Virus record (IMG/VR): IMGVR_UViG_3300005294_000003
Coordinates: 1 to 45,309 of that record
From: a virus
Length of the DNA stretch: 45,309 nt
Direction: 5' to 3' (one strand)
The position numbers were made by a program, and so were the translations under genes. A model generated the notes under the pieces. The model worked only from the letters and a program-made list of their open reading frames with translations, did not search any database and was not told the origin of the DNA. Of this stretch, positions 3,281-45,309 are shown piece after piece; position 1 is the first letter of the stretch, and the number at the start of each line of letters is the position of its first letter.

Positions 3281-3475
3281 CTAACTCCCCAATGTTTCGA
3301 GACGTTGGCGAACCTCCTCGGACATCATATCATTACTTATCATAGTAGATCTATAACCACGTTGACGCTGCTTTCTTCTAATAGCTTCTGCATTAGCTTC
3401 TTGAACAAATTTATCCTGTTCTTTTGGAGCAGGAGCTACAACCTGCGGTTTAGGTGAACTACCTCCGCTGGCCAT
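3281..3475 (-). CDS. Small basic protein (64 aa from ATG 3475)
   Basis: ATG 3475 preceded by AAGGA; Arg/Lys-rich core IRRKQRQRGYRSTMIS similar to small proteins found near packaging genes of podoviruses. Confidence 0.45.
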   Translation of the reverse strand: MASGGSSPKPQVVAPAPKEQDKFVQEANAEAIRRKQRQRGYRSTMISNDMMSEEVRQRLETLGS

Positions 3476-4829
3476 ATATATTCCTTGGGTCAAAATCTAT
3501 TTCTACTTTAACCTCTTGGTCAAATTGGTGATCCCACATTAAAGGCTCAAACCCCGCCTCCTCACCAGTTCGGAGGGCGTCAGCCCCATGTGACCATTTA
3601 TCGTGTCTAGGTTTCTCACTGAAAACTTGGTCTTCTTCGTTAAATTCCCTATTGTAGTTACGAAGGCAATCAATGCCTTTGGCACATTTAAGTCTGTCGA
3701 AATAGAAACGATAGAAGTTACGGCGGATCTTTTCAATTTCAGCTTGCACACTTGGGGTTCTTTTGTCTACACAAACTACATTCTTGAACCCCATTTCACC
3801 AAGGTATTCCGCAGCGGCCCGCCCATCCCACGGTAGACACAACCGGCCATAAACATAAGGCTTTTGTTCACGTAGTAGTTTAACAACCCACTGCATTGAC
3901 TTCTGAGTTTCTTCTTCGTAATCTATAAAACGAATTGCACCATTTACAACTTGGTAAAACCAAATAGCCATAGCGTCGGCATGACCAAGGTCAAATAGAA
4001 CACCTACGGGATGGTTGGCAATGTAGGGAATATTATCAATACGGCCGTCGGCATCGGCCTTCATCATCATATCGCCATAGATCGTACCATACTGGAAACC
4101 AGTAAAATCACACCAAAATTCCTGTCTTAACCATTCTTCACGTTTGCCGCGCCTCCGGAACTCCTCAATGGTTTCCAAACTAACTACTGGGAGGCCGTTT
4201 TCACCAAGCGCGTCTCGTCGAGTATCTTCAATAGTTAGTTTTTGGCAGAACCAGTTGGGATTGTTATAGGCCATATCATATAGACGTTTTCCGTGATTCT
4301 CACCATTCGGGGTATAGGCAAACAATTGCCAGCCGTCATTTTCTGCAAATACGGGTTCCAAGGTATCCATTGCTGCTTCCATGTAGTCGCCATGTGCGTA
4401 CTCACTATATACTATTCCGATAGGATTAGGCCCTCTGAGTCTTTCAACTGCTTTCTTGTCATCCGCCCCCATTACTTGATATATAGAACCATTAACTAAC
4501 TGCAACTGCATTTCAGTTTCATTAGGTTTGGATGCCAGAAGTTCCTGTGGAAACATATCTATCATACGAAAGGAACGTTCAACACCATTAATCTTTTCTT
4601 GTAGAATATTATCCCAGAGGTCGCGGCGACCCTGATTTAACGCAGGGAACAAATGAAAATAGACACCTTGTCGCTTCAATGCTTCTTCCAAAGTAAAAGC
4701 CATAGCATTACGATCTTTGCCGGCACGGCGATGCCACAAACAAACAAAGTTCTTTTTACCCGCGAAGCGTGCCTGACGCACGGCCCTTTGGTAACTACGC
4801 GGGCGAAATATTTCCCTGACGATCGCCAT
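3459..4829 (-). CDS. terL: Terminase large subunit
   Basis: 456 aa; N-terminal Walker-A-like WHRRAGKD, acidic Walker-B-like stretch, C-terminal nuclease-sized half; adjacent to portal. Confidence 0.85.
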   Translation of the reverse strand: MAIVREIFRPRSYQRAVRQARFAGKKNFVCLWHRRAGKDRNAMAFTLEEALKRQGVYFHLFPALNQGRRDLWDNILQEKINGVERSFRMIDMFPQELLASKPNETEMQLQLVNGSIYQVMGADDKKAVERLRGPNPIGIVYSEYAHGDYMEAAMDTLEPVFAENDGWQLFAYTPNGENHGKRLYDMAYNNPNWFCQKLTIEDTRRDALGENGLPVVSLETIEEFRRRGKREEWLRQEFWCDFTGFQYGTIYGDMMMKADADGRIDNIPYIANHPVGVLFDLGHADAMAIWFYQVVNGAIRFIDYEEETQKSMQWVVKLLREQKPYVYGRLCLPWDGRAAAEYLGEMGFKNVVCVDKRTPSVQAEIEKIRRNFYRFYFDRLKCAKGIDCLRNYNREFNEEDQVFSEKPRHDKWSHGADALRTGEEAGFEPLMWDHQFDQEVKVEIDFDPRNIYGQRR

Positions 4830-5251: not shown

Positions 5252-5813
5252 CTTTAAAAAGCTCCGCTATAACATGAGGTGGCATTTTCCCATTACGCAT
5301 TTTAAAAACTTGTGGCTCCATTTCCACAATCTCACCTTCCGCAGGCTCCAAATGCCCGGAGGGCATGAAATGCGGAAGACTCAATTGCTCTGGTGAAGCC
5401 ACAAGCTCCGACGCTGCAGGATCGCCATTTAACGTTGGTTCGTTATTAAGCCGGCTTTCTAATTCCGGCGCATGGTCACCTCCTATGACTAATTCTAGAA
5501 CGCCAGTCACAGGATCAATGCGTAACGCCACCTGCGGTGTTTTAACTTTATCTTGTTCCTGAACGTAAGTCCCGGCCACTTTCATTACTTTGTCAATTGC
5601 ACCCTGGCGGGCCATGTTATCTTCTACAAGGCGTTCGTCTGTAACTCTACCCTGAAATGTGAAAAACTCTGATTTCTTTGCATCCAATTGTTCATCTAAA
5701 CGTTCAAAGGCTTTTTGCAAAAGATCAGGCGGGGGTGCCAACCTAACAAATATCGCCCGGCGTATTGCTTCAACATCATAAGATATTGATTTTTTAACTA
5801 GTTTGTTGGCCAT
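5241..5813 (-). CDS. Hypothetical protein (190 aa); small terminase subunit is possible by position only
   Basis: First larger ORF upstream of terL; no motif recognised. Confidence 0.45.
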   Translation of the reverse strand: MANKLVKKSISYDVEAIRRAIFVRLAPPPDLLQKAFERLDEQLDAKKSEFFTFQGRVTDERLVEDNMARQGAIDKVMKVAGTYVQEQDKVKTPQVALRIDPVTGVLELVIGGDHAPELESRLNNEPTLNGDPAASELVASPEQLSLPHFMPSGHLEPAEGEIVEMEPQVFKMRNGKMPPHVIAELFKDEP

Positions 5814-5961
5814 TTGTATTTATATACCTGTGCTAGCATGCTGTCATGTTTGTAAGTTTCGTATTCCTTGGGAGGAAGTCTGTGTGGTGACATTGTTCTG
5901 AGGGCCTGGCCATCTGCTATATAACGATTAATTTCGGGTGGAAGTGTTAAAACTACGTAGT

Positions 5962-6090
5962 TCAATGTGTAAACCCTCTAGATTTACAATTCTCACACAC
6001 GCTGATTTTAACTATTTTGTCAGGGGCGGGGCAACGACATTGACTTATGATTGCTGTACACCATTTACATTTCTCTATATAGTGACTCAT
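5962..6090 (-). CDS. Small Cys-rich protein (42 aa)
   Basis: ATGA start/stop overlap with upstream gene at 6087-6090; MSHYIEKCKWC...CRC...CENCK; below ORF-track size cutoff. Confidence 0.35.
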   Translation of the reverse strand: MSHYIEKCKWCTAIISQCRCPAPDKIVKISVCENCKSRGFTH

Positions 6091-6404
6091 GTACCTAAAG
6101 CCTTGGCAACTAGCCAATCTAAAGGATTCTTCTTAGCAACTCGCGTCCTGGGCCTCCCAGCGTTTGCAAGTCTTGTTGTTTCAATTCCATGGAATAGCAT
6201 TTTACGAATCTTCAAAATCTCAGATTCTGAGAGAAAACGCTGCTCCCACACTGACCCAGGGCCCTGCCCATTACTTGTAGTCTTATATAAACCTGGGAAT
6301 TCCGCTTTATGTTTATATAGAAACGAATACAAATGATTCAAGGAAGGCATAGGAATCAATTCACAGGCAACTTCCAACGTTACTAATTGTTCAATCAACG
6401 CCAA
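6087..6404 (-). CDS. Putative helix-turn-helix DNA-binding protein (105 aa)
   Basis: LVTLEVACELIPMPSLNHLYSFLYKHK resembles excisionase/MerR-type HTH; second gene of the leftward operon next to the control region. Confidence 0.5.
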   Translation of the reverse strand: MALIEQLVTLEVACELIPMPSLNHLYSFLYKHKAEFPGLYKTTSNGQGPGSVWEQRFLSESEILKIRKMLFHGIETTRLANAGRPRTRVAKKNPLDWLVAKALGT

Positions 6405-6552
6405 TACTCACAATGCCAAAATTACTAATACGTACTGCCTTACTAGGCACAGGTGTAAACTCACCATGTTTACCACAGCTAGCGAAATTTTCCCAATCAT
6501 ACTTACATGCTTTGAAACATTCGAAGCAGTTAATGTCACGTAAATATGCCAT
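6391..6552 (-). CDS. Small Cys-rich protein (53 aa from ATG 6552)
   Basis: ATG 6552 preceded by AGGGGG SD (rc of 6557-6562); CFECFKACK...C motif; track start 6603 is GTG without SD. Confidence 0.45.
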   Translation of the reverse strand: MAYLRDINCFECFKACKYDWENFASCGKHGEFTPVPSKAVRISNFGIVSIGVD

Positions 6553-6601
6553 CTTACCCCCTACAGCAATGCTAGATAGACTACTCCTATCCACTAGGAA
6601 C

Positions 6602-6631
6602 ACTTTACCTTACCGATTCACTTCCTGTCAA
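6602..6631 (-). promoter_or_regulatory. Candidate sigma70-type leftward promoter
   Basis: Minus strand reads TTGACA (rc 6626-6631), 18-nt spacer, TAAAGT (rc 6602-6607), about 45 nt upstream of ATG 6552. Confidence 0.4.
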
Positions 6632-6873
6632 ATTTATTTTCCCTTCAAAAATCGCATACTTACAGCGCATTAACGCCCCGACGCCCGGCCGCGCTAGCGA
6701 AACTGCTTCACAGGCAGTTAAGTCTTAAATTAACTTTCCAAAACCAAAAATGCCTAAAAAACTTAAAAAAGTTTTTGGGAGGCAAAATGCCTAAAAAATC
6801 AAAGAGAGTGACTGCAAATTCCATGCCAAAAGACTCAAAAGCCCCCTGGCACCCCTCTTGCATTCTGCATATT

Positions 6874-6961
6874 CTGTGCCATTGACGCAATGCGTAATTA
6901 TCCACAAATTATCCACAATTGGGGTATTGTGGATAACTGCGGCACTGCGTCATTGGCACAG
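6874..6961. repeat. 20-bp imperfect inverted repeat flanking the DnaA-box cluster
   Basis: ctgtgccattgacgcaatgc (6874-6893) versus reverse complement of gcactgcgtcattggcacag (6942-6961): 18 of 20 match. Confidence 0.8.
6898..6936. promoter_or_regulatory. Cluster of three perfect DnaA boxes (TTATCCACA)
   Basis: TTATCCACA at 6898-6906 and 6909-6917, TGTGGATAA (inverted) at 6928-6936. Confidence 0.8.
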
Positions 6962-6987
6962 CGTATGCATTAGCACATAGTATGCCA

Positions 6988-7027
6988 ATCAACACAAATC
7001 AACATAAATCAACCTAAATCAATACTA
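6988..7027. repeat. Four tandem 10-bp repeats (AATCAACNNA), helically phased
   Basis: atcaacacaa atcaacataa atcaacctaa atcaatacta read directly at 6989-7028 region. Confidence 0.8.
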
Positions 7028-7032
7028 AATGG

Positions 7033-7071
7033 TCGGGCATTGTGCCCGAATAGGTCGGGCATTGTACCCGA
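7033..7071. repeat. Two tandem copies of a GGGCA-N3-TGCCC palindrome (operator-like)
   Basis: tcgggcattgtgcccga (7033-7049) and tcgggcattgtacccga (7055-7071), each inside a 22-bp direct repeat ggtcgggcattgt(g/a)cccga. Confidence 0.8.
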
Positions 7072-7120
7072 TGCGTAAGTATTTGATTTGATGTACATTT
7101 CTCGCTGTAACCTGTATAGA

Positions 7121-7137
7121 CAGGGCATAGTGCCCGA
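7121..7137. repeat. Third copy of the GGGCA-N3-TGCCC palindrome
   Basis: cagggcatagtgcccga. Confidence 0.7.
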
Positions 7138-7531
7138 TACTACACCAATGTATAGCACCATGGGTAGTGTAGTCTAGGAGAGCGACCACATTATGCTGTA
7201 TTAGGTATGTGGCACAGGGCCTGCAATACCATTGATGCGTAGGCGATGCGGGCGGTACAAGACCCGCAGAGACCAGGTAGGGCCTACACTCACTGACCAC
7301 GCCTTGCGGAAGCAAGGAAAGACAGTGATAGGACACGGCGCATAGCCCGTAGCGTGCCAAGCGTTTGCCTTGGTAGTGGCGGGGATTCGTTAGCAGCCTC
7401 CCTATAAAGAATATAACTCATTCTCCGAGCACTGACAATGCGGAGAGAATGAGACTAAGGCTAGGCATTGCCAACGCGTTGCGCGCTAGCACAGGCGCAG
7501 CGCGTCTACACTGAAAGAAAGGGATAGGACA

Positions 7532-7780
7532 ATGTGCAAACACAGTCTAAAGAGTGGTTGCGTTTACTGCCATGGCGCACAGCGCCAGAGCGTAAACGTC
7601 AATGGTACCCTGAACCCCAAGGTTTTAAGGCGTGATCGCCGAGCTCTAAACTACGCCTTGCGCGTAGAACAGGCAATGGTACAAGAAGGGCCATTAGCGC
7701 AGCGTGAACGCACGCCTAGCGGCTACCGCCCGATAGGGCGTAGCATGGCAAAGTGGTTAACGGGATACGCTGGTAACTAA
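7532..7780 (+). CDS. Doubtful basic ORF (82 aa) inside the control region
   Basis: ATG ORF with only a weak purine-rich stretch upstream (aagggataggacaATG); CxxxxxxCxxCH N-terminus; could be non-coding. Confidence 0.3.
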   Translation: MCKHSLKSGCVYCHGAQRQSVNVNGTLNPKVLRRDRRALNYALRVEQAMVQEGPLAQRERTPSGYRPIGRSMAKWLTGYAGN

Positions 7781-7798
7781 CCAAAGTCTAACCCAGGC

Positions 7799-7911
7799 GT
7801 GACACTGCGCTGGCGCGGTCAGGGGCAAACGGCCAATGGCTACGCCAGTTTGCCTATGGTGACACTCTCCGAGGCAAACGGCCTTTAATGGCAGGGGTTT
7901 ACGCGACACTG
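7799..7911. repeat. Three direct copies of a GTGACACTG-like motif left of the AT-rich island
   Basis: gtgacactg 7799-7807, gtgacactc 7859-7867 (60 bp later), gcgacactg 7903-7911. Confidence 0.75.
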
Positions 7912-7965
7912 CCGGTTCGCTAGGTAGCCGTGGCTAGGCGCCCCCCGAGTGATAGACTATGGAAG

Positions 7966-8040
7966 TTAGATTTTGAATTATATATACAAGTAATATATTA
8001 TAATAATAATATAATATTAAAACATATACTAAAGACTATT
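7966..8040. other. AT-rich island (candidate DNA unwinding element and/or early promoter TTGAAT-17-TATTAT)
   Basis: Hand count 8 G/C in 75 nt, embedded in GC-rich flanks; TTGAAT 7973-7978, 17-nt spacer, TATTAT 7996-8001. Confidence 0.45.
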
Positions 8041-8112
8041 CCTCCCTGGGCCCCGGGGCCATGGAGACCCCTACCTAGGAAACTGCCGTTGTCCTGTAAC
8101 TGCTTGAAAACA

Positions 8113-8130
8113 CAGGGCAAAAGTGCCCGA
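8113..8130. repeat. Fourth (one-base longer) copy of the GGGCA...TGCCC palindrome
   Basis: cagggcaaaagtgcccga. Confidence 0.6.
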
Positions 8131-8199
8131 CAGTGTCACCTCAGGTAACTGTGTGACTTCATTGGCCGTTCCGGGCAGTCAATGTCAAGACAGTGTCAT
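8129..8199. repeat. Two inverted-orientation copies of the GTGACACTG motif right of the AT-rich island
   Basis: gacagtgtcac 8129-8139 and gacagtgtcat 8189-8199, again exactly 60 bp apart; core GACAGTGTC is itself a 9-bp palindrome. Confidence 0.75.
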
Positions 8200-8215
8200 A
8201 GGAGGCGTTAGTCCT

Positions 8216-8341
8216 ATGGAAAACAATGAACTAGCGCGCGTACGTTGTGCTATCTGCAATGGTTGCAAATTAGGAGGGCCTTGCTTTAGACCTATTATAA
8301 TTAGAAGTATAAAGAAAGGTGGTGATACCAAAAATGCGTAA
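8216..8341 (+). CDS. Small Cys-rich protein (41 aa)
   Basis: AGGAGG 10 nt upstream of ATG 8216; MENNELARVRCAICNGCKLGGPC. Confidence 0.3.
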   Translation: MENNELARVRCAICNGCKLGGPCFRPIIIRSIKKGGDTKNA

Positions 8342-8442
8342 GCATGGTGGTGTTTGGTTCTTGAAGTTGTGGCGCATGCGTCTAACGTTTTGTGTGGTAC
8401 GGGCACGTTAACCAACGGCCCGAGCGCCCTCGGAGGTAAAAT

Positions 8443-8670
8443 ATGGAAATGACTGCCGATGAAGTAAAAGAGTTAGCAACACGCGGGCGTATCTACGCTA
8501 CCAAAGCGTTACGCCTACGGACCGGGCTCGGCCTACGTGATGCTCTTGACATTGTGAACGCCTATGCCGTTGCAATAGGCATGGGCACGATGCAAGAGCA
8601 ACGTTACACATGTGGTGAATGCGGTGGCTCCGGTTATAAGATACACAAGATTTACGTTCACAGAGGTTGA
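8443..8670 (+). CDS. Early protein with ribosomal L7/L12 C-terminal-domain-like segment and one DnaJ-type CxxCxGxG knuckle (75 aa)
   Basis: GGAGG [29 protein letters not shown] aligns with L7/L12 [35 protein letters not shown] near C-terminus. Confidence 0.55.
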   Translation: [75 protein letters not shown]

Positions 8671-8932: not shown

Positions 8933-9577
8933 ATGGCAATGCCTAAAGCCAAGATCGAACGGGTTGTGCGTGAGGAAGATGGTTTTCAAGTGGTGGAGGT
9001 TGACGTTGCCGGTGGTGGTGAAACCAAGGCAACCAAGACTGTTACTATGCGGAGGCCTACGGCTCAGAAGCTAACGGAATTGGTTACGGTGCTTGGCAAT
9101 GAAAAGAAAGTGCCGTTGACCACTTTCTTCCTGGGTTCTGACTACGAAGGAAAGGACACGGGCGAGGAAACCATGTCGCAGTTTCTTGCGCGCATGGTGG
9201 GCGTCGCTATCGACAAGCGCATTCGCGCTGACGCCTATGAGTCCGTGGCCCAGGAATCCACCACTATCACGGTGGGTAAGGACAAGATCGATCTCATGTC
9301 CTTCAAGTTGAAGGGCCTCCTGCGCGCAATCAATGGTGCGCGTGGAGTGCGGGCCGAGCGCATGGCGGCGGTTGGTATCGAAGATCCTGACTCCACGGAA
9401 CTTACCCAGGAGCAACAGGATAAGGTTAAGACTGGTGACCGGGGCCTGGGCTATGGTCCTTACAAGACTGCAGCAAAGAATCTTGTCGAGGGCTACGTTA
9501 ACGACAAGGGTGAAAAGGTTCCGCCACAGGCACGGGAAAACAAGGAAACGGGTTTGCTGGAAGCTATCGCTGCCTAG
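8933..9577 (+). CDS. Early protein of unknown function (214 aa; ATG 8939 has better SD spacing)
   Basis: First gene after P1, followed by hairpins and a T7 run; GC-rich codon usage unlike most of the genome; no motif recognised. Confidence 0.65.
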   Translation: MAMPKAKIERVVREEDGFQVVEVDVAGGGETKATKTVTMRRPTAQKLTELVTVLGNEKKVPLTTFFLGSDYEGKDTGEETMSQFLARMVGVAIDKRIRADAYESVAQESTTITVGKDKIDLMSFKLKGLLRAINGARGVRAERMAAVGIEDPDSTELTQEQQDKVKTGDRGLGYGPYKTAAKNLVEGYVNDKGEKVPPQARENKETGLLEAIAA

Positions 9578-9692
9578 CTCTTAGTGTGTGAATGGTTGAA
9601 TGCGCCGCTGATAACATTCGTGGGCGTGACTTAAATAAGTTCCACCTAACACACTAAGAAACCCGCTGGCATACCGGGTAATGTATGCCATA

Positions 9693-9758
9693 GCTAGCGC
9701 GGCTAGCATGCTTCGCATGTAATCCCCAGTATTTGTGGGTGCCGCGTTAGCTTTTTTT
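9693..9758 (+). terminator. Stem plus T7 run after the 214-aa early gene
   Basis: gctagcgcggc (9693-9703) pairs with gccgcgttagc (9741-9751, one G-U), then ttttttt (9752-9758); long structured loop lowers confidence. Confidence 0.45.
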
Positions 9759-9801
9759 ATTAAACACATCGTTTCACAATTTTTGGTGGGAGGGCAACAC
9801 A

Positions 9802-9939
9802 ATGTCTGATGATGACGACCATGTAGAATATCAACCAGAGTTTGTTGGTCCTTGCACTTGTGACCATGATACTGATGATCATGGATGGAGCGAATGCAAT
9901 ATCGAAGGTTGTAAGTGTGAGGCTTTTTGGTCAGAATAA
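9802..9939 (+). CDS. Small acidic Cys-rich protein (45 aa)
   Basis: GGGAGGG SD 8 nt upstream; MSDDDDHVEYQPEFVGPCTCDHDTDDHGWSECNIEGCKCEAFWSE. Confidence 0.45.
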   Translation: MSDDDDHVEYQPEFVGPCTCDHDTDDHGWSECNIEGCKCEAFWSE

Positions 9940-10033
9940 GACTAACCTAGCAAGGACCGTGCCAGCCTAGACGGGCCTCCGGCCCTCGCGGCTGGGCGCC
10001 CTAAGTGCCTGCCAAGGCAGCCTAAAATAGCCC

Positions 10034-10062
10034 TTGACACGCCCAGCCTAACGTGTTACTCT
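10034..10062 (+). promoter_or_regulatory. Sigma70-type early promoter P2
   Basis: TTGACA (10034-10039), 17-nt spacer, TACTCT (10057-10062); shares gcc(c)TTGACACG context with P1. Confidence 0.55.
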
Positions 10063-10081
10063 CCTGCCTGGAGCCAGAAAA

Positions 10082-10375
10082 ATGCAAGACGACAGCGCCA
10101 CTGACGTTAGACTTCAAAAGGCTCTACAAACTGTAAAACTCTTATGTGACGAACGCGACAGCGCCCGTCGCACCCTAGACTACCTAGAAGACCGAATCCG
10201 CGAAGCGTGGAAGCTAGTGCCTCATATGGCGGTGCGCCAGGAAAAGCCCTGCCGTAAATGTCAACGGCCCACAATGGAAACGTTTGGAGGCACGGCAATG
10301 TGTCGTAAACATATTGCCAAGGATAACGATATGGCATCTATCCTTGAAAGACTGATCTACGACGATGGAAACTAA
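10082..10375 (+). CDS. Hypothetical early protein with CxxC...C..H motif (97 aa)
   Basis: GGAG SD; CRKCQRPTMETFGGTAMCRKH. Confidence 0.55.
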   Translation: MQDDSATDVRLQKALQTVKLLCDERDSARRTLDYLEDRIREAWKLVPHMAVRQEKPCRKCQRPTMETFGGTAMCRKHIAKDNDMASILERLIYDDGN

Positions 10376-18428: not shown

Positions 18429-18602
18429 ATGGCAAATATAGAGTTGGCCGAGGCTCAACTAGCTATCCTTCATAAAGTGAAACGTAGCATAGCACCATTA
18501 TGTGGTGTTTTGCCTTCGGCGAATATGCGTGACAAGGCTCGCAAGATTTATGATATTGCCAAACAGCTTGAAGAAGATATTAAGAAAGCTAATCCTGTTT
18601 GA
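18429..18602 (+). CDS. Hypothetical protein (57 aa from ATG 18429)
   Basis: AAGGA upstream of ATG; stop overlaps the polymerase TTG start (TTTGA). Confidence 0.4.
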   Translation: MANIELAEAQLAILHKVKRSIAPLCGVLPSANMRDKARKIYDIAKQLEEDIKKANPV

Positions 18603-20356
18603 TTTTCACAGACCAAAGAGTTAAAGCCTCCGGCCCACTAAATGCGCAATTAATGGCTATAGGCATGGCCCCGGCCAAATGGGAGTTAGCGGGTGGAAAG
18701 CCATTTAGCGGACCTTCTGGTAAAATATTTGATGAAGCGTTGTGGCAATCCAAGACTCCTCGTGATAAAGTCCGCGTCACTAATCTCGTTAACTTCTATA
18801 TCGACGATAACAATTTATATTCGGTTCCTAAAGAGGTTATGGATGCTGAAAGGGCGCGTGTCTTCGCAGAAATCGACGAAGTTAAACCAAACTGTTTGCT
18901 TATCATGGGCGGTGATACCCTGGACTTACTTACCGCCTCCAGAATCGAAACCTCAAAAAAAGGTAGCATTTATGCGGTTGGGTCTAAGGAAGGAGTGACG
19001 AAATGGCGCGGATCAATCATAACTATTTTAATGCCGTCCGGGAGATTGCAGAAATGCGTAGTGGCAATGCACCCAAGCAATTTTATCCGTGGTCAGTGGA
19101 AATGGCTGCCAATATACAAATACATAGATGTGCCAAGGGCTGTCACACAATCTTCATTTGCAGGCTTGAAGCTAACTCCACGGTCGGCGATAACTGGACC
19201 TTCGTTCCGTCAGGCGCGAGAGTGGCTCTTACATATGTTACAACAGGAATATGTGAGTATAGACTACGAGGGTTGGGAGCACATAACGTGTCTAGGGAGT
19301 GGTTCGACGGCAAACGAGGCATTATGCATACCACTAAACCGTGTTGGAAGCGCTTCTTATTGGGTGATCGCAGAAGAAATAGAATTATGGAAACTGTGGT
19401 CACAGTTATTACAAAGCCACAAGGTTAAAAAGGTTGGGCAAAATGCGTCTTTCGAATACATTAAAAGTTGGCTTTATGGTATTTATCCTACTGAATTTGC
19501 TCTCGATACTCTCTATATGCATCATTGCCTATATCCTGATTTTGGTGGCATTACAGACGAATGGTCTGGTCGTAAACGCGACATTGACAATCCTGGTCAT
19601 GGTCTCGCTTTTATTACTAGCCAATACACTGATCAACATTATTATAAAGATGACGGGCGTAATTGGACGCCTGCTTTAGGCGAAGAAAAATTTTGGCAAT
19701 ATAATTGCCTCGACGTTATGGTAACGTTTGAGGCCGCCATGAAAATGAAACTTGAATTAGAAAAAACTGGTTTATGGAAGACTTACGTGGAGATGTATCA
19801 GGAAGAACTCGAACACAATCTCCGTATGGAATGGAATGGCGTAGCCTTAGACGTTGAACGTCGTCAGGCGGCCGGTGTTACCATGTTAGCTGAGATTGCA
19901 GAAATAAGTCAGGCCATAAAGGCAGAGGTTGGATATGATAGAGTGGTTGCTAAAAGAGATTGGAAAACAGCGAAAGCCCCAGTCGGAGTCTTAAACCTAA
20001 GCTCACCAAAACAGATGCAATATTTTTTGTATGAACAACGAAGGCACAAACCAGTCTATAAAGTGGATAAAAGAACTAAACAACGAAAAATCACAACAGA
20101 CAAAGATGCCTTAAATAGCCTTGCCAGAAAGGACCCGGTGATTTATAAGATTATTAAAATGAAACAGATTCAAGACCTCAAAAATGATATTATAGATCAG
20201 CCGTTAGATGCCGAAGGCAGAATGCATTTCCATGTTAAAACTGGAGGGACAAATGGCACGCGCAAAAGCACGGCGGAAAGCATCCTCGGTAGCGGATTCA
20301 ACGCGCAAAATCTCCCAAGGCAAGGCATCGCAAGATCGCTCTTCCTTCCAAGTTGA
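18599..20356 (+). CDS. DNA polymerase family A, N-terminal fragment: UDG-family-4-like domain + 3'-5' exonuclease + first part of the polymerase domain (585 aa)
   Basis: UDG-like GMAPAKWELAGGKPFSGPSGKIFDEAL and AMHPSNF; exo motifs SIDYEG, GQNASFEY, YNCLDV; ends ...GFNAQNLPRQGIARSLFLPS, just before where motif A should follow. Confidence 0.85.
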   Translation: MIFTDQRVKASGPLNAQLMAIGMAPAKWELAGGKPFSGPSGKIFDEALWQSKTPRDKVRVTNLVNFYIDDNNLYSVPKEVMDAERARVFAEIDEVKPNCLLIMGGDTLDLLTASRIETSKKGSIYAVGSKEGVTKWRGSIITILMPSGRLQKCVVAMHPSNFIRGQWKWLPIYKYIDVPRAVTQSSFAGLKLTPRSAITGPSFRQAREWLLHMLQQEYVSIDYEGWEHITCLGSGSTANEALCIPLNRVGSASYWVIAEEIELWKLWSQLLQSHKVKKVGQNASFEYIKSWLYGIYPTEFALDTLYMHHCLYPDFGGITDEWSGRKRDIDNPGHGLAFITSQYTDQHYYKDDGRNWTPALGEEKFWQYNCLDVMVTFEAAMKMKLELEKTGLWKTYVEMYQEELEHNLRMEWNGVALDVERRQAAGVTMLAEIAEISQAIKAEVGYDRVVAKRDWKTAKAPVGVLNLSSPKQMQYFLYEQRRHKPVYKVDKRTKQRKITTDKDALNSLARKDPVIYKIIKMKQIQDLKNDIIDQPLDAEGRMHFHVKTGGTNGTRKSTAESILGSGFNAQNLPRQGIARSLFLPS

Positions 20357-21209: not shown

Positions 21210-21314
21210 ATGATATGTCTACGCTGTAGATTAGAAGTAATAGATGTTTGTTATAGATGCAAAACGTGCAAGAAATGCCACGATGATTTGGATACGAGGT
21301 TTCCATGTCATTAG
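21210..21314 (+). CDS. Doubtful 34-codon Cys-rich ORF in the gap before the second polymerase fragment
   Basis: MICLRCRLEVIDVCYRCKTCKKCHDDLDTRFPCH; overlaps ATG 21305; could be a relic rather than a gene. Confidence 0.2.
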   Translation: MICLRCRLEVIDVCYRCKTCKKCHDDLDTRFPCH

Positions 21315-22222
21315 CATTACCACGAGTCTGGTTGTTTGCAGACTACAACCAAGCGGAGTCTAGGGTTGTGGCATGGAAAGGCCCGGTCCCTAAACTTAAA
21401 CAACGTTATCAGGAAGGTGTAGATGTCCACTCTTACGTATGTAATCTCATTGCACGTGTCGTTCAAGAGAATAACATTAGCACACCCATCAATCCTGAAA
21501 CTGGAAAACGACTCTTTCGATGGAAAGATCATGGAACTTTTGGAAAGGGAGATGAAGAACGGGAGATTGCCAAACGTGCTGTGCATGCCGGTAATTACGG
21601 AGAAGGAGTTTCTAAATTTGCGTTACGCACTGGATTGGCCGAAGATTCAGCTGCTATCGTCAAAAAGATCTATGAAACTCTCTTCCCAGAAATTAAAACT
21701 AATTACCAAGCCTGGGTCGAGCGGTGCATACGCAAAAACAAAACAATCTGTACGCCCGAACCCGTTAAGTTCCGTAAAATCTTCTACGACATCGTCTCCG
21801 ACGATTTAATGAGACAGGCTTACGCCGCTTATCCACAATATACCATTGGGGCGATGCTCAATAGGACTATCAAAAAGTGTTGTAGAATCTTCATAGAAGA
21901 TACAACGGAATCATTAAAAGACCAATGGAAGGCATGGTACGGTGATGAGAATTGGGATAACTGGCGTCATCTACGTGATAGTGGTCTCCGTACTCCTCAG
22001 GCTATATTGTGGAGCGGGATGGATGTCCGTCTTAATATCCACGACGCTGGCGGTATCAGTATACCTAACGACCCTGATCTTATTCGATGGGCTGCAACAC
22101 GGTGGAAAGAAATAGCAGAAACACCTATCCAAGTCCACGAAAACGAAACGATGATTGTGCCAGTTGACTTCAAAACGGGGGCGACATGGGGTGCCGAGGA
22201 TCAGAAGGATTACAAATTATGA
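21305..22222 (+). CDS. DNA polymerase family A, C-terminal fragment (motifs A, B, C; 305 aa)
   Basis: GAGG SD; LFADYNQAESRV (motif A), RAVHAGNYGEGVSKFA (motif B), IHDAGG (motif C). Confidence 0.85.
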   Translation: MSLALPRVWLFADYNQAESRVVAWKGPVPKLKQRYQEGVDVHSYVCNLIARVVQENNISTPINPETGKRLFRWKDHGTFGKGDEEREIAKRAVHAGNYGEGVSKFALRTGLAEDSAAIVKKIYETLFPEIKTNYQAWVERCIRKNKTICTPEPVKFRKIFYDIVSDDLMRQAYAAYPQYTIGAMLNRTIKKCCRIFIEDTTESLKDQWKAWYGDENWDNWRHLRDSGLRTPQAILWSGMDVRLNIHDAGGISIPNDPDLIRWAATRWKEIAETPIQVHENETMIVPVDFKTGATWGAEDQKDYKL

Positions 22223-45267: not shown

Positions 45268-45309
45268 TTGGCGGTCACTTGAAAACCTCCGGCCTGTGAC
45301 GGCGGGTAT
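45268..45309. repeat. Terminal overlap copy 2 (identical to 1-42)
   Basis: Exact 42-nt identity with window start. Confidence 0.95.

Follow-up and report, generated by a model that had tools for sequence, protein, structure and literature searches.

That phage and plasmid DNA can carry DnaA boxes is well known. The locus described here raises the question of what three exact consensus boxes, packed within 39 bp of a phage control region, do for the virus: whether they belong to an origin of replication, act on neighbouring promoters or are directed at the host. An earlier note on this DNA had likened the layout to origins of the P1/plasmid type and had suggested, alternatively, that the element recruits or titrates host DnaA or gates the leftward promoter. 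We followed up these proposals in the window, that is, the whole stretch of 45,309 bp that was analysed, and in its relatives.

The ends of the window overlap exactly over 42 bp, which marks the assembly as circular, with a length of about 45,267 bp. Leftward genes start at about 6555 with small ORFs and include the terminase (3459–4829), portal and scaffold genes; past the junction come genes for the major head protein and for tail tube and internal virion proteins, the leftward run reaching about 24,400. Rightward genes extend from about 7530 to about 23,700 and encode an SNF2 helicase, a PD-(D/E)XK nuclease, a Sak4-like ATPase, a split UDG-PolA polymerase, MazG and a DUF3987 primase/helicase-like protein. 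Since the structural genes are directed leftward and the replication genes rightward, 6600–7530 is the only bidirectional control region. The cumulative GC skew has its minimum at about 7000 and its maximum at about 24000, the points at which gene orientation switches. Domain scans with Pfam and PHROG covered the early ORFs and most of the late ones, all but about 19 mostly small ORFs, and revealed no genes for Rep, DnaA-like proteins, RNA polymerase, integrase or partition among the ORFs scanned. Having no RNA polymerase gene among these ORFs, the phage must use the host holoenzyme. No tRNA genes were found in the window. The window is the complete genome, circularly assembled and about 45.3 kb long, of an uncultured soil phage that is podovirus-like and apparently lytic. 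Many of its small early ORFs have no known function.

The features of the control region are listed in Table 1. The three exact 9-mers described in the earlier note lie at the coordinates given there (6898 and 6909 on the plus strand, 6928 on the minus strand), and its placing of them in a divergent control region next to phased repeats was confirmed, the repeats being four copies of AAATCAAC with a 10-bp period.

Table 1. Coordinates of the DnaA boxes, putative promoters and other elements in the control region of the window.
Feature	Position	Strand	Sequence and remarks
Sigma-70-like promoter	6602..6631	-	TTGACA-18-TAAAGT; directly precedes the first leftward gene; conserved in L011 and L147
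AT-rich stretch	6720..6810	none	65-75% A+T, two AAAATGCCTAAAAAA repeats; sole candidate unwinding element left of the boxes
P_Lb, late-directed sigma-54-type motif	6813..6828	-	TGGCATGGAATTTGCA; most conserved hub element; identical in L147; TGGCACGGAATTTGCC in L011
P_R1, sigma-54-type motif	6847..6862	+	TGGCACCCCTCTTGCA, full consensus; conserved in L013, L015 and L239
Palindromic insertion, 107 bp	6863..6969	none	single-copy, lineage-specific (alignments, fold); contains all three boxes and two copies of the promoter motif
P_L2, leftward sigma-54-type motif	6866..6881	-	TGGCACAGAATATGCA; left inverted-repeat arm
DnaA box 1	6898..6906	+	TTATCCACA, exact consensus
DnaA box 2	6909..6917	+	TTATCCACA, exact; second copy of an 11-bp tandem duplication
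DnaA box 3	6928..6936	-	reads TGTGGATAA on the plus strand; inverted; 10 bp from box 2
P_R2, rightward sigma-54-type motif	6954..6969	+	TGGCACAGCGTATGCA; right inverted-repeat arm
P_L3, degenerate motif copy	6972..6987	-	TGGCATACTATGTGCT; adjoins the 10-bp repeats
Phased 8-mers, four copies	6987..7022	+	AAATCAAC, 10-bp period (phased A-tracts or iteron-like); repeat search
Three 7-3-7 palindromes	7031..7137 (7031, 7053, 7119)	none	TCGGGCAnnnTGCCCGA; also in L011, L147 and L017
P_R3, early-directed sigma-54-type motif	7210..7225	+	TGGCACAGGGCCTGCA; orthologue in L011 (477-462, -)

On both strands the window contains four exact copies of TTATCCACA against 0.49 expected from dinucleotide shuffles, a number reached in none of 100 shuffles; the fourth copy is at 21829, within the polymerase gene. 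For three matches inside 39 bp, a probability of about 4e-8 is obtained from base composition on the assumption of independence. The boxes are not independent, since a palindrome has box 1 in one arm and box 3 in the other, while box 2 is a tandem copy that arose by an exact 11-bp duplication (two copies of AATTATCCACA, 6896–6917). The meaningful statistic is therefore that the motif which was multiplied is the DnaA consensus, an outcome with a chance of about 1e-5 per position when both strands are counted. The match to the consensus is not due to chance, as had been judged earlier, although the copies do not count as separate events.

Boxes 1 and 2 are in direct orientation with a 2-bp spacer and form a perfect double DnaA box (TTATCCACAaaTTATCCACA). 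In vivo, E. coli DnaA binds double boxes 2–3 bp apart, while most isolated consensus boxes stay unoccupied, according to ChIP-seq and mutagenesis (PMC11317965). The phage pair conforms to this E. coli spacing rule (2–3 bp; PMC11317965). The double-box sites at the nrdA, polA, purH, mioC and dnaA promoters of E. coli are likewise direct pairs 2–3 bp apart near promoters, but none of the 15 sites listed has two perfect boxes, whereas here both are perfect (PMC11317965). The phage cassette further differs from them in having an inverted third box and neighbours of sigma-54 rather than sigma-70 type, and in lying on a phage genome. DnaA would be the most probable ligand of the boxes. No further box with up to one mismatch was found within 50 bp of the cluster, there were no DnaA-trio-like or other trinucleotide repeats next to the boxes (the flanks are TTGACGCAATGCGTAA and CTGCGGCACTGCGTCAT), and GATC does not occur in 6500–7600.

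The inverted repeat that brackets the boxes, described earlier as 20 bp long, was recovered as 20 nt with 18/20 matches (6874–6893 and 6942–6961) and proved to be longer, with 28-nt arms (6866–6893 and 6942–6969) that are 86% complementary. An inner inverted pair (6893–6907 and 6927–6941) takes in boxes 1 and 3. By folding, 6866–6969 is one hairpin (DNA dG -32.6 kcal/mol, z = -6.9), and the cassette is predicted to form one long hairpin or cruciform. Each arm holds TGGCACAG-N4-ATGCA, which is a sigma-54-type motif with GG at -24 and GC at -12. We conclude that the repeat arms are, judging by their sequence, copies of the promoter motif of the family. The unit that is repeated in inverted orientation consists of a box, 16/17 bp and a promoter motif; the symmetric distance from box to promoter is an automatic outcome of the inverted duplication. 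The arms (42 and 43 nt) differ at seven positions, all of them outside the 19 that make up the -12 TGCA, the -24 GTGCCA and the DnaA box; this distribution has a P of about 0.009 in a post hoc test with only seven differences.

An independent JGI soil contig of 2375 bp (L144) is 100% identical to window positions 5602–7976, so the cassette is real sequence and not an assembly artefact. No second copy was found in the window, and none in IMG/VR (searched with two box patterns), INPHARED or PLSDB. Near and distant BLAST searches with the control region or the cassette against INPHARED and PLSDB gave no matches or trivial short ones. Scans of IMG/VR for tandem boxes, for an inverted pair with N10 and for the 17-nt repeat core returned unrelated contexts and chance matches, except for a known relative and the contig L095. 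A mobile miniature inverted-repeat element (MITE) was rejected, the cassette being single-copy and its arms copies of a neighbouring promoter unit. An intrinsic terminator was also rejected, as no U-run follows either arm. Rfam gave nothing at gathering thresholds; at E<=1 only sub-threshold matches of the palindrome to eukaryotic miRNA hairpins appeared, and these were dismissed as generic hairpin similarity.

The closest relative, L011, has a TerL 84% identical to that of the window and a collinear control region. The sigma-70-like promoter, the late sigma-54-type motif and the early motif are found in both, as are three of the four 10-bp repeats, the TCGGGCAnnnTGCCCGA palindromes and a conserved leader. 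What L011 lacks is a stretch of about 118 bp with the boxes and both arms. Immediately after the 10-bp repeats, L146 and L239 have TGGCACGnnAAATGCA-A(T)A-TGCAAGAGrGGG. The same junction in the window is split by 107 bp (6863–6969), with the promoter unit on both sides; the insertion separates the 10-bp repeats from the conserved promoter pair. Alignments show the insertion to be missing from L011, L146, L239, L147 and L242. The cassette is thus a recent, lineage-specific insertion into a promoter hub. The identity of the bracketing repeat as a pair of sigma-54-type motifs, and of the whole element as a recent 107-bp insertion, had not been recognised in the earlier note. The control hub is plastic among the relatives.

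Conservation of the triple box in related phages, which the note had put forward for checking, was not borne out: none of the relatives recovered (L011, L146, L147, L239/240/241, L012–L015 and L001) has the cluster in its homologous region, and no DnaA box with up to one mismatch occurs in the homologous control region of any of them. The note had itself named absence from close relatives as grounds against its proposal, and with the boxes absent there the claim of a core origin falls. The cassette would act as an accessory regulator outside the core of the family's replication machinery and is not a conserved core origin. The suggestion that it recruits or titrates host DnaA, or gates the leftward promoter, remains viable.

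A homologue search with a 105-aa neighbour gene found only three relatives, no record was found for the exact terminase protein, and among genome contigs scanned with a terminase profile for clues to the host the best match was a Chlamydiia MAG, with none above 37% identity. There is no close cultured phage (best terminase identity 37%).

Two further loci contain comparable clusters. L242 has one of its own at 7513–7611, with two exact boxes and one near-exact box (TTATCCACA at 7513, TTATCCGCA at 7534 and TGTGGATAA at 7603). It occupies an intergenic gap of the early operon, a different place from that of the window cassette, and has no adjoining full sigma-54 motif. It was gained independently, and it fits a role in replication or titration at least as well as a promoter gate. 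The other locus is the unrelated GC-rich viral contig L095, in which TTATCCACA-N10-TGTGGATAA-N3-TGTGGATAA lies upstream of terminase genes; its box geometry is the same as that of the window cassette.

The control region is a hub of TGGCAC-N5-TTGCW motifs, palindromes and phased A-tracts, and such hubs recur across relatives. TGGCA[CT]-N5-nTGC[AT], the motif found in the arms, occurs seven times in the window against 0.36 expected, and six of the seven sites are within 6813–7225. The window motifs combine GG at -24 with GC at -12 at a fixed distance (TGGCAC-N5-TTGCW). Clusters of the motif were found in the homologous divergent region of most relatives recovered by terminase (L012–L017, L146, L147 and L239, not L001). 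Positions that the search pattern did not constrain are canonical as well: G follows TGGCAC (position 7) in 19 of 30 sites and T precedes TGC (position 12) in 15 of 30. We infer that the motifs are probably sigma-54-dependent. No sigma-54 activator domain (PF00158) was found in the phage ORFs scanned. All promoter start positions used below were derived from motif geometry. P_L3 stands where L146 and L239 have the ancestral late-directed promoter, and the inferred transcript of P_R1 would traverse the cassette.

Enhancer-dependent sigma-54 promoters have an upstream activating sequence (UAS), then IHF or an intrinsic bend, and then the -24/-12 promoter. The arrangement seen here resembles this layout, with 7-3-7 palindromes at about -75 to -260 from various motifs and A-tracts or DnaA boxes at about -30 to -80. 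It differs in its multiple overlapping motifs, placed face-to-face and back-to-back, in having no recognised activator gene, and in DnaA boxes that would occupy the IHF position. The TCGGGCAnnnTGCCCGA palindromes look like candidate enhancer or operator sites. The AAATCAAC repeats are kept in L011 and L001, with two copies in L146, L239 and L242. The 10-bp repeats of L146 and L239 border immediately on the ancestral late-directed motif, at about -27 to -60, and would thus sit where the bending elements of sigma-54 promoters normally lie; with the palindromes farther upstream, these relatives would have the classical order of enhancer, bend and promoter. An IHF site within the 10-bp repeats was considered and rejected, the consensus WATCAANNNNTTR, checked by eye, giving no fit. 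Besides the stretch listed in Table 1, AT-rich DNA is present at 6980–7030.

Several known systems were compared with the cassette. DARS, a chromosomal DnaA-reactivating sequence that acts on the nucleotide state of DnaA, has head-to-head boxes with a 5-bp spacer fitted to an AAA+ head-to-head dimer (PMC6868365). The DARS1 core, read from MG1655, is TTATCCACT-5bp-TGTGGATAA-3bp-TGTGTATTA. Like the cassette, it combines two direct boxes with an inverted third, and the CACA ends of the inverted pair point towards each other; the spacers, however, are 10 and 2 bp in the cassette against 5 and 3 bp, and the cassette boxes are all consensus. Membership of the DARS class was rejected because of the 10-bp spacer where 5 bp is required. 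A chromosomal oriC-type origin was rejected as well, there being no DnaA-trio repeats or flanking DUE and no graded-affinity box set. At lambda pR/ori-lambda, DnaA stimulates transcriptional activation of the origin through weak boxes at a sigma-70 promoter, and the phage has its own O/P initiator. The present phage would likewise employ host DnaA at a promoter that is transcribed for replication as well, but its three boxes are all consensus and lie within a palindrome, with sigma-54-type motifs on either side. The cassette belongs to none of the P1/iteron-origin, oriC, DARS and MITE classes, since it lacks defining features of each of them. By analogy, it would work like known DnaA-box regulatory or auxiliary-origin sites.

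The reading that we tentatively prefer is that the cassette serves as a DnaA-dependent gate, or an architectural element, for the flanking promoters, and a host-sensing add-on is in our opinion more likely than an origin of the P1/plasmid type. A host DnaA dimer would occupy the 2-bp-spaced boxes 1 and 2, and a third protomer would bind the inverted box 3. The boxes would be at about -43 to -81 from the inferred starts of the outward P_L2 and P_R2, the zone in which IHF is usually placed at sigma-54 promoters, and at about +25 to +63 downstream of the inward P_R1 and P_L3. Given these positions, bound DnaA would affect both the path from enhancer to promoter, which could be bent or occluded, and read-through transcription across the cassette, which could be blocked as by a roadblock. 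In the duplicated promoter copy the DnaA boxes would replace the bend. The balance between leftward (structural) and rightward (replication) expression would then be set by free DnaA, which may drop as every new phage genome brings three high-affinity sites.

The exact, non-chance boxes argue for such a gate, boxes 1 and 2 corresponding to the unit bound in vivo in E. coli (PMC11317965). So do the arms, which are sigma-54-type motifs of the kind clustered in the homologous region of relatives and whose differences spare the box, -24 and -12 elements, and the absence of a phage RNA polymerase among the scanned ORFs, hence the reliance on the host holoenzyme. On the other side, the sigma-54 assignment is itself a prediction, with no PF00158 in the scanned ORFs and a sigma-70-like promoter also preceding the late genes; the symmetric spacing follows automatically from inverted duplication; the L242 cluster lies away from any full sigma-54 motif; and the test on arm divergence was post hoc, with seven differences. 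We know of no action of DnaA on sigma-54 promoters.

Against this reading stand, above all, explanations that place the boxes in replication. In an auxiliary DnaA-assisted origin, the boxes, the negative supercoiling between divergent promoters and the cruciform would together open the AT-rich DNA at 6980–7030 or 6720–6810; host DnaB or the phage DUF3987 helicase would be loaded, and the AAATCAAC 8-mers would be iterons of an initiator-helicase of the P4 type. We hold this to be doubtful, yet nearly as likely as the gate. The boxes adjoin conserved 10-bp-phased 8-mers and AT-rich DNA, a DUF3987 primase/helicase-like protein is encoded, L242 has gained two exact boxes and one near-exact box in an early-transcribed region, and the unrelated contig L095 has the same box-N10-box-N3-box geometry. 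The skew minimum at about 7000 and maximum at about 24000 are also as expected of an origin, but the skew is confounded with transcription direction. Moreover, the boxes are missing from the other relatives, including the one with 84% TerL identity that retains the repeats, so the origin of the family does not need DnaA; there are no DnaA-trio-like repeats and no GATC beside the boxes, and the 10-bp repeats of L146 and L239, at about -27 to -60 of a promoter motif, hold the position of a bend and not of an iteron. To our knowledge, no lytic phage with its own polymerase and helicase is known to depend on DnaA. A replicon proper of the P1/plasmid type, as proposed in the earlier note, would have a Rep protein on iterons and the boxes as its obligatory cofactor site. 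P1 oriR and the iteron-plasmid origins of pSC101, RK2 and F have DnaA boxes beside Rep iterons, and the window, likewise an extrachromosomal replicon, shares with them consensus boxes that neighbour short direct repeats and AT-rich DNA. No obvious Rep-type initiator had been seen earlier, and none was detected in the ORFs scanned, nor was any partition or integrase-type function, in a genome that is podovirus-like and apparently lytic. The sole array consists of four 8-mers with a 10-bp period instead of 17–22-bp iterons, and these repeats lie at a sigma-54 bend position; there is no GATC cluster or GATC-rich AT region (no GATC in 6500–7600); and the boxes are not conserved, being missing from all phage relatives that keep the repeats. 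We regard this proposal as highly improbable.

Two other explanations dispense with an effect of DnaA on the phage's own promoters or origin. The boxes may have no DnaA role at all, AATTATCCACAA being the operator of a phage protein or of another host protein, or the cassette being a recent neutral by-product of template-switch (quasi-palindrome) duplication. One ancestral copy would yield all three boxes by inverted and 11-bp tandem duplication, one consensus 9-mer is not unusual by chance in 45 kb (0.49 expected), the hub is plastic among relatives, and many small early ORFs of the phage are of no known function. Nevertheless, we find this explanation rather unlikely: the chance that the multiplied 9-mer is the DnaA consensus is about 1e-5 per position, none of the seven differences between the arms falls in a box, similar clusters occur in L242 and in the unrelated L095, and the motif has no family of other genome copies, which a phage operator would often have. 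In addition, the tandem copy gives precisely the 2-bp spacing preferred by DnaA (PMC11317965). Still less probable, in our view, is an element directed at the host, either a datA-like DnaA sink or a DARS-like site, which when amplified would shut down or deregulate initiation on the host chromosome. Each genome copy brings three consensus boxes, and their orientation has the topology of the E. coli DARS1 core, but the spacers are 10 instead of 5 bp (head-to-head, about half a helical turn off) and 2 instead of 3 bp (direct). Such an element would give no reason for the construction from promoter copies or for the location in the control hub; its benefit for a lytic phage is not evident, and the cassette is missing from relatives.

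The gate could be extended to a genome-copy counter, in which replication would titrate DnaA and its release would flip the mutually overlapping, enhancer-dependent promoters of sigma-54 type from replication to structural genes. This is a long shot. If true, it would be a lytic phage timer joining DnaA and the sigma-54 holoenzyme, host systems not linked before, and the phage would be one of a wider, undescribed group of podophages that apparently run their entire programme from a sigma-54 hub.

The boxes alone are not new. What is unusual is a cassette apparently built from sigma-54-type promoters, with ideal DnaA-binding geometry on a recent insertion. Since this insertion is dispensable, the window and L011 offer a natural comparison with and without it, and may indicate what a lytic phage gains from recruiting the host initiator. 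If DnaA acts on the sigma-54-type promoter copies, a new regulatory connection would be established.

The recurring sigma-54-type hub in uncultured podophages with no recognisable activator is, as far as the motifs allow us to judge, a more surprising result than the boxes. In the literature searched we found no published description of such a hub in these podophages and nothing relevant on phage sigma-54 promoters or phage-encoded enhancer-binding proteins. If confirmed, the hub would matter more than the boxes for understanding the timing of the programme in phages that lack an RNA polymerase. When metagenomes were scanned with the late-promoter pattern, phage relatives were recovered, together with bacterial sites resembling a terminator followed by a sigma-54 promoter. 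In the clade the motif occurs 1.75 times per 10 kb, compared with 0.07 times in unrelated viral loci, and a more distant lineage (L025/L026) has eight motif copies in 560 bp.

The sigma-54-type −24/−12 motif (TGGCAC-N5-TTGCW) was found to be clustered repeatedly in the single divergent control region of a group of uncultured podophages that includes the window's phage. The motif density in this group was 1.75 per 10 kb, compared with 0.07 in unrelated viral loci, and the copies frequently overlapped each other face-to-face or back-to-back. Our literature search found no account of such clusters, and no sigma-54 activator domain was detected among the scanned ORFs of the window. The positions of the clusters and accompanying elements are listed in the table.

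Coordinates of control elements and of the small early gene in the window and related genomes
Feature	Genome	Position	Strand	Remark
Sigma-54-type motifs	window	6813-7225 and 9949-9964
Sigma-54-type motif cluster	L012	8027-8391
Sigma-54-type motif cluster	L013	8149-8635
Sigma-54-type motif cluster	L014	3218-3275
Sigma-54-type motif cluster	L015	1642-1860
Sigma-54-type motif cluster	L025/L026	2953-3527		more distant lineage
Isolated consensus motif TGGCACGGTCCTTGCT	window	9949-9964	(-)	within gap 9577-10082
AAATCAAC	window	6987-7022		four copies, exact 10-bp period
7-3-7 palindromes TCGGGCAnnnTGCCCGA	window	7031-7049, 7053-7071, 7119-7137		three copies
Palindrome CCTGT(A/C)TAGACAGG	window	7110-7123
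Palindrome CCTGT(A/C)TAGACAGG	L001	8614-8645
Palindrome CCTGT(A/C)TAGACAGG	L146	~190-235
Palindrome CCTGT(A/C)TAGACAGG	L239
Palindrome CCTGT(A/C)TAGACAGG	L242	8165-8220
Small early protein	window	8443-8670
Small early protein, homologue	L013	6446-6856

Several repeated elements accompany these motifs in the control region. The 7-3-7 palindromes, which resemble enhancer (UAS) or operator sites, are common to the window, its closest relative L011, L147 and L017, whereas L013 carries another repeated palindrome, TTAGGTGCACCTAA, at the equivalent position. The CCTGT(A/C) palindrome is kept in the control region of relatives that have little other non-coding sequence in common. The AAATCAAC repeats were also found in L011 and in L001, whose terminase is only 51% identical. 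In L146 and L239, two copies immediately adjoin a promoter motif. The repeats could be an intrinsic bend, a site for a host architectural protein or P4-like 8-mer iterons.

DnaA-box clusters were also found in other genomes. The relative L242 (VFSW01008977.1) has a separate cluster at 7513-7611, comprising two exact boxes and one with a single mismatch, in the same order (+,+,-) as in the 107-bp palindromic cassette of the window. It is situated between genes of the early operon, a different site from that of the window's cassette, which suggests that the two were acquired independently. In the GC-rich viral contig L095, which is unrelated to the window, the same triple-box geometry (TTATCCACA-N10-TGTGGATAA-N3-TGTGGATAA, 9872-9911) lies immediately upstream of the small and large terminase genes. 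Arrays with over 10 consensus boxes were present in L094 and L098.

The region that follows the early-directed motif P_R3 (7237-8440, about 1.2 kb) could correspond to a long, structured leader or to a non-coding RNA. It has few credible ORFs, and its G+C content (52%) exceeds that of the genome (43%). The first 295 nt show nucleotide-level conservation with L011 and fold better than shuffled sequences (z = -3.6). An Rfam search with this stretch returned no match. The isolated motif further downstream opposes the direction of the replication operon, and the surrounding 500 bp contain no good ORF; a similar motif in L012 (4837-4852) is oriented with the operon of that genome, not against it.

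An exact 42-bp terminal direct repeat (1-42 and 45268-45309) indicates that the assembly is circular, and the complete genome measures about 45,267 bp. Among its early products, the small protein appears to resemble the C-terminal domain of ribosomal protein L7/L12, based on a weak precomputed Pfam match of the L013 homologue and our own reading of the sequence. The coding sequence of the family A DNA polymerase is divided between two ORFs (18599-20356 and 21305-22222); the intervening stretch of about 950 bp holds the gene for a MazG-like protein and an ORF of 186 aa. The N-terminal part of the polymerase is fused to a UDG-superfamily domain.
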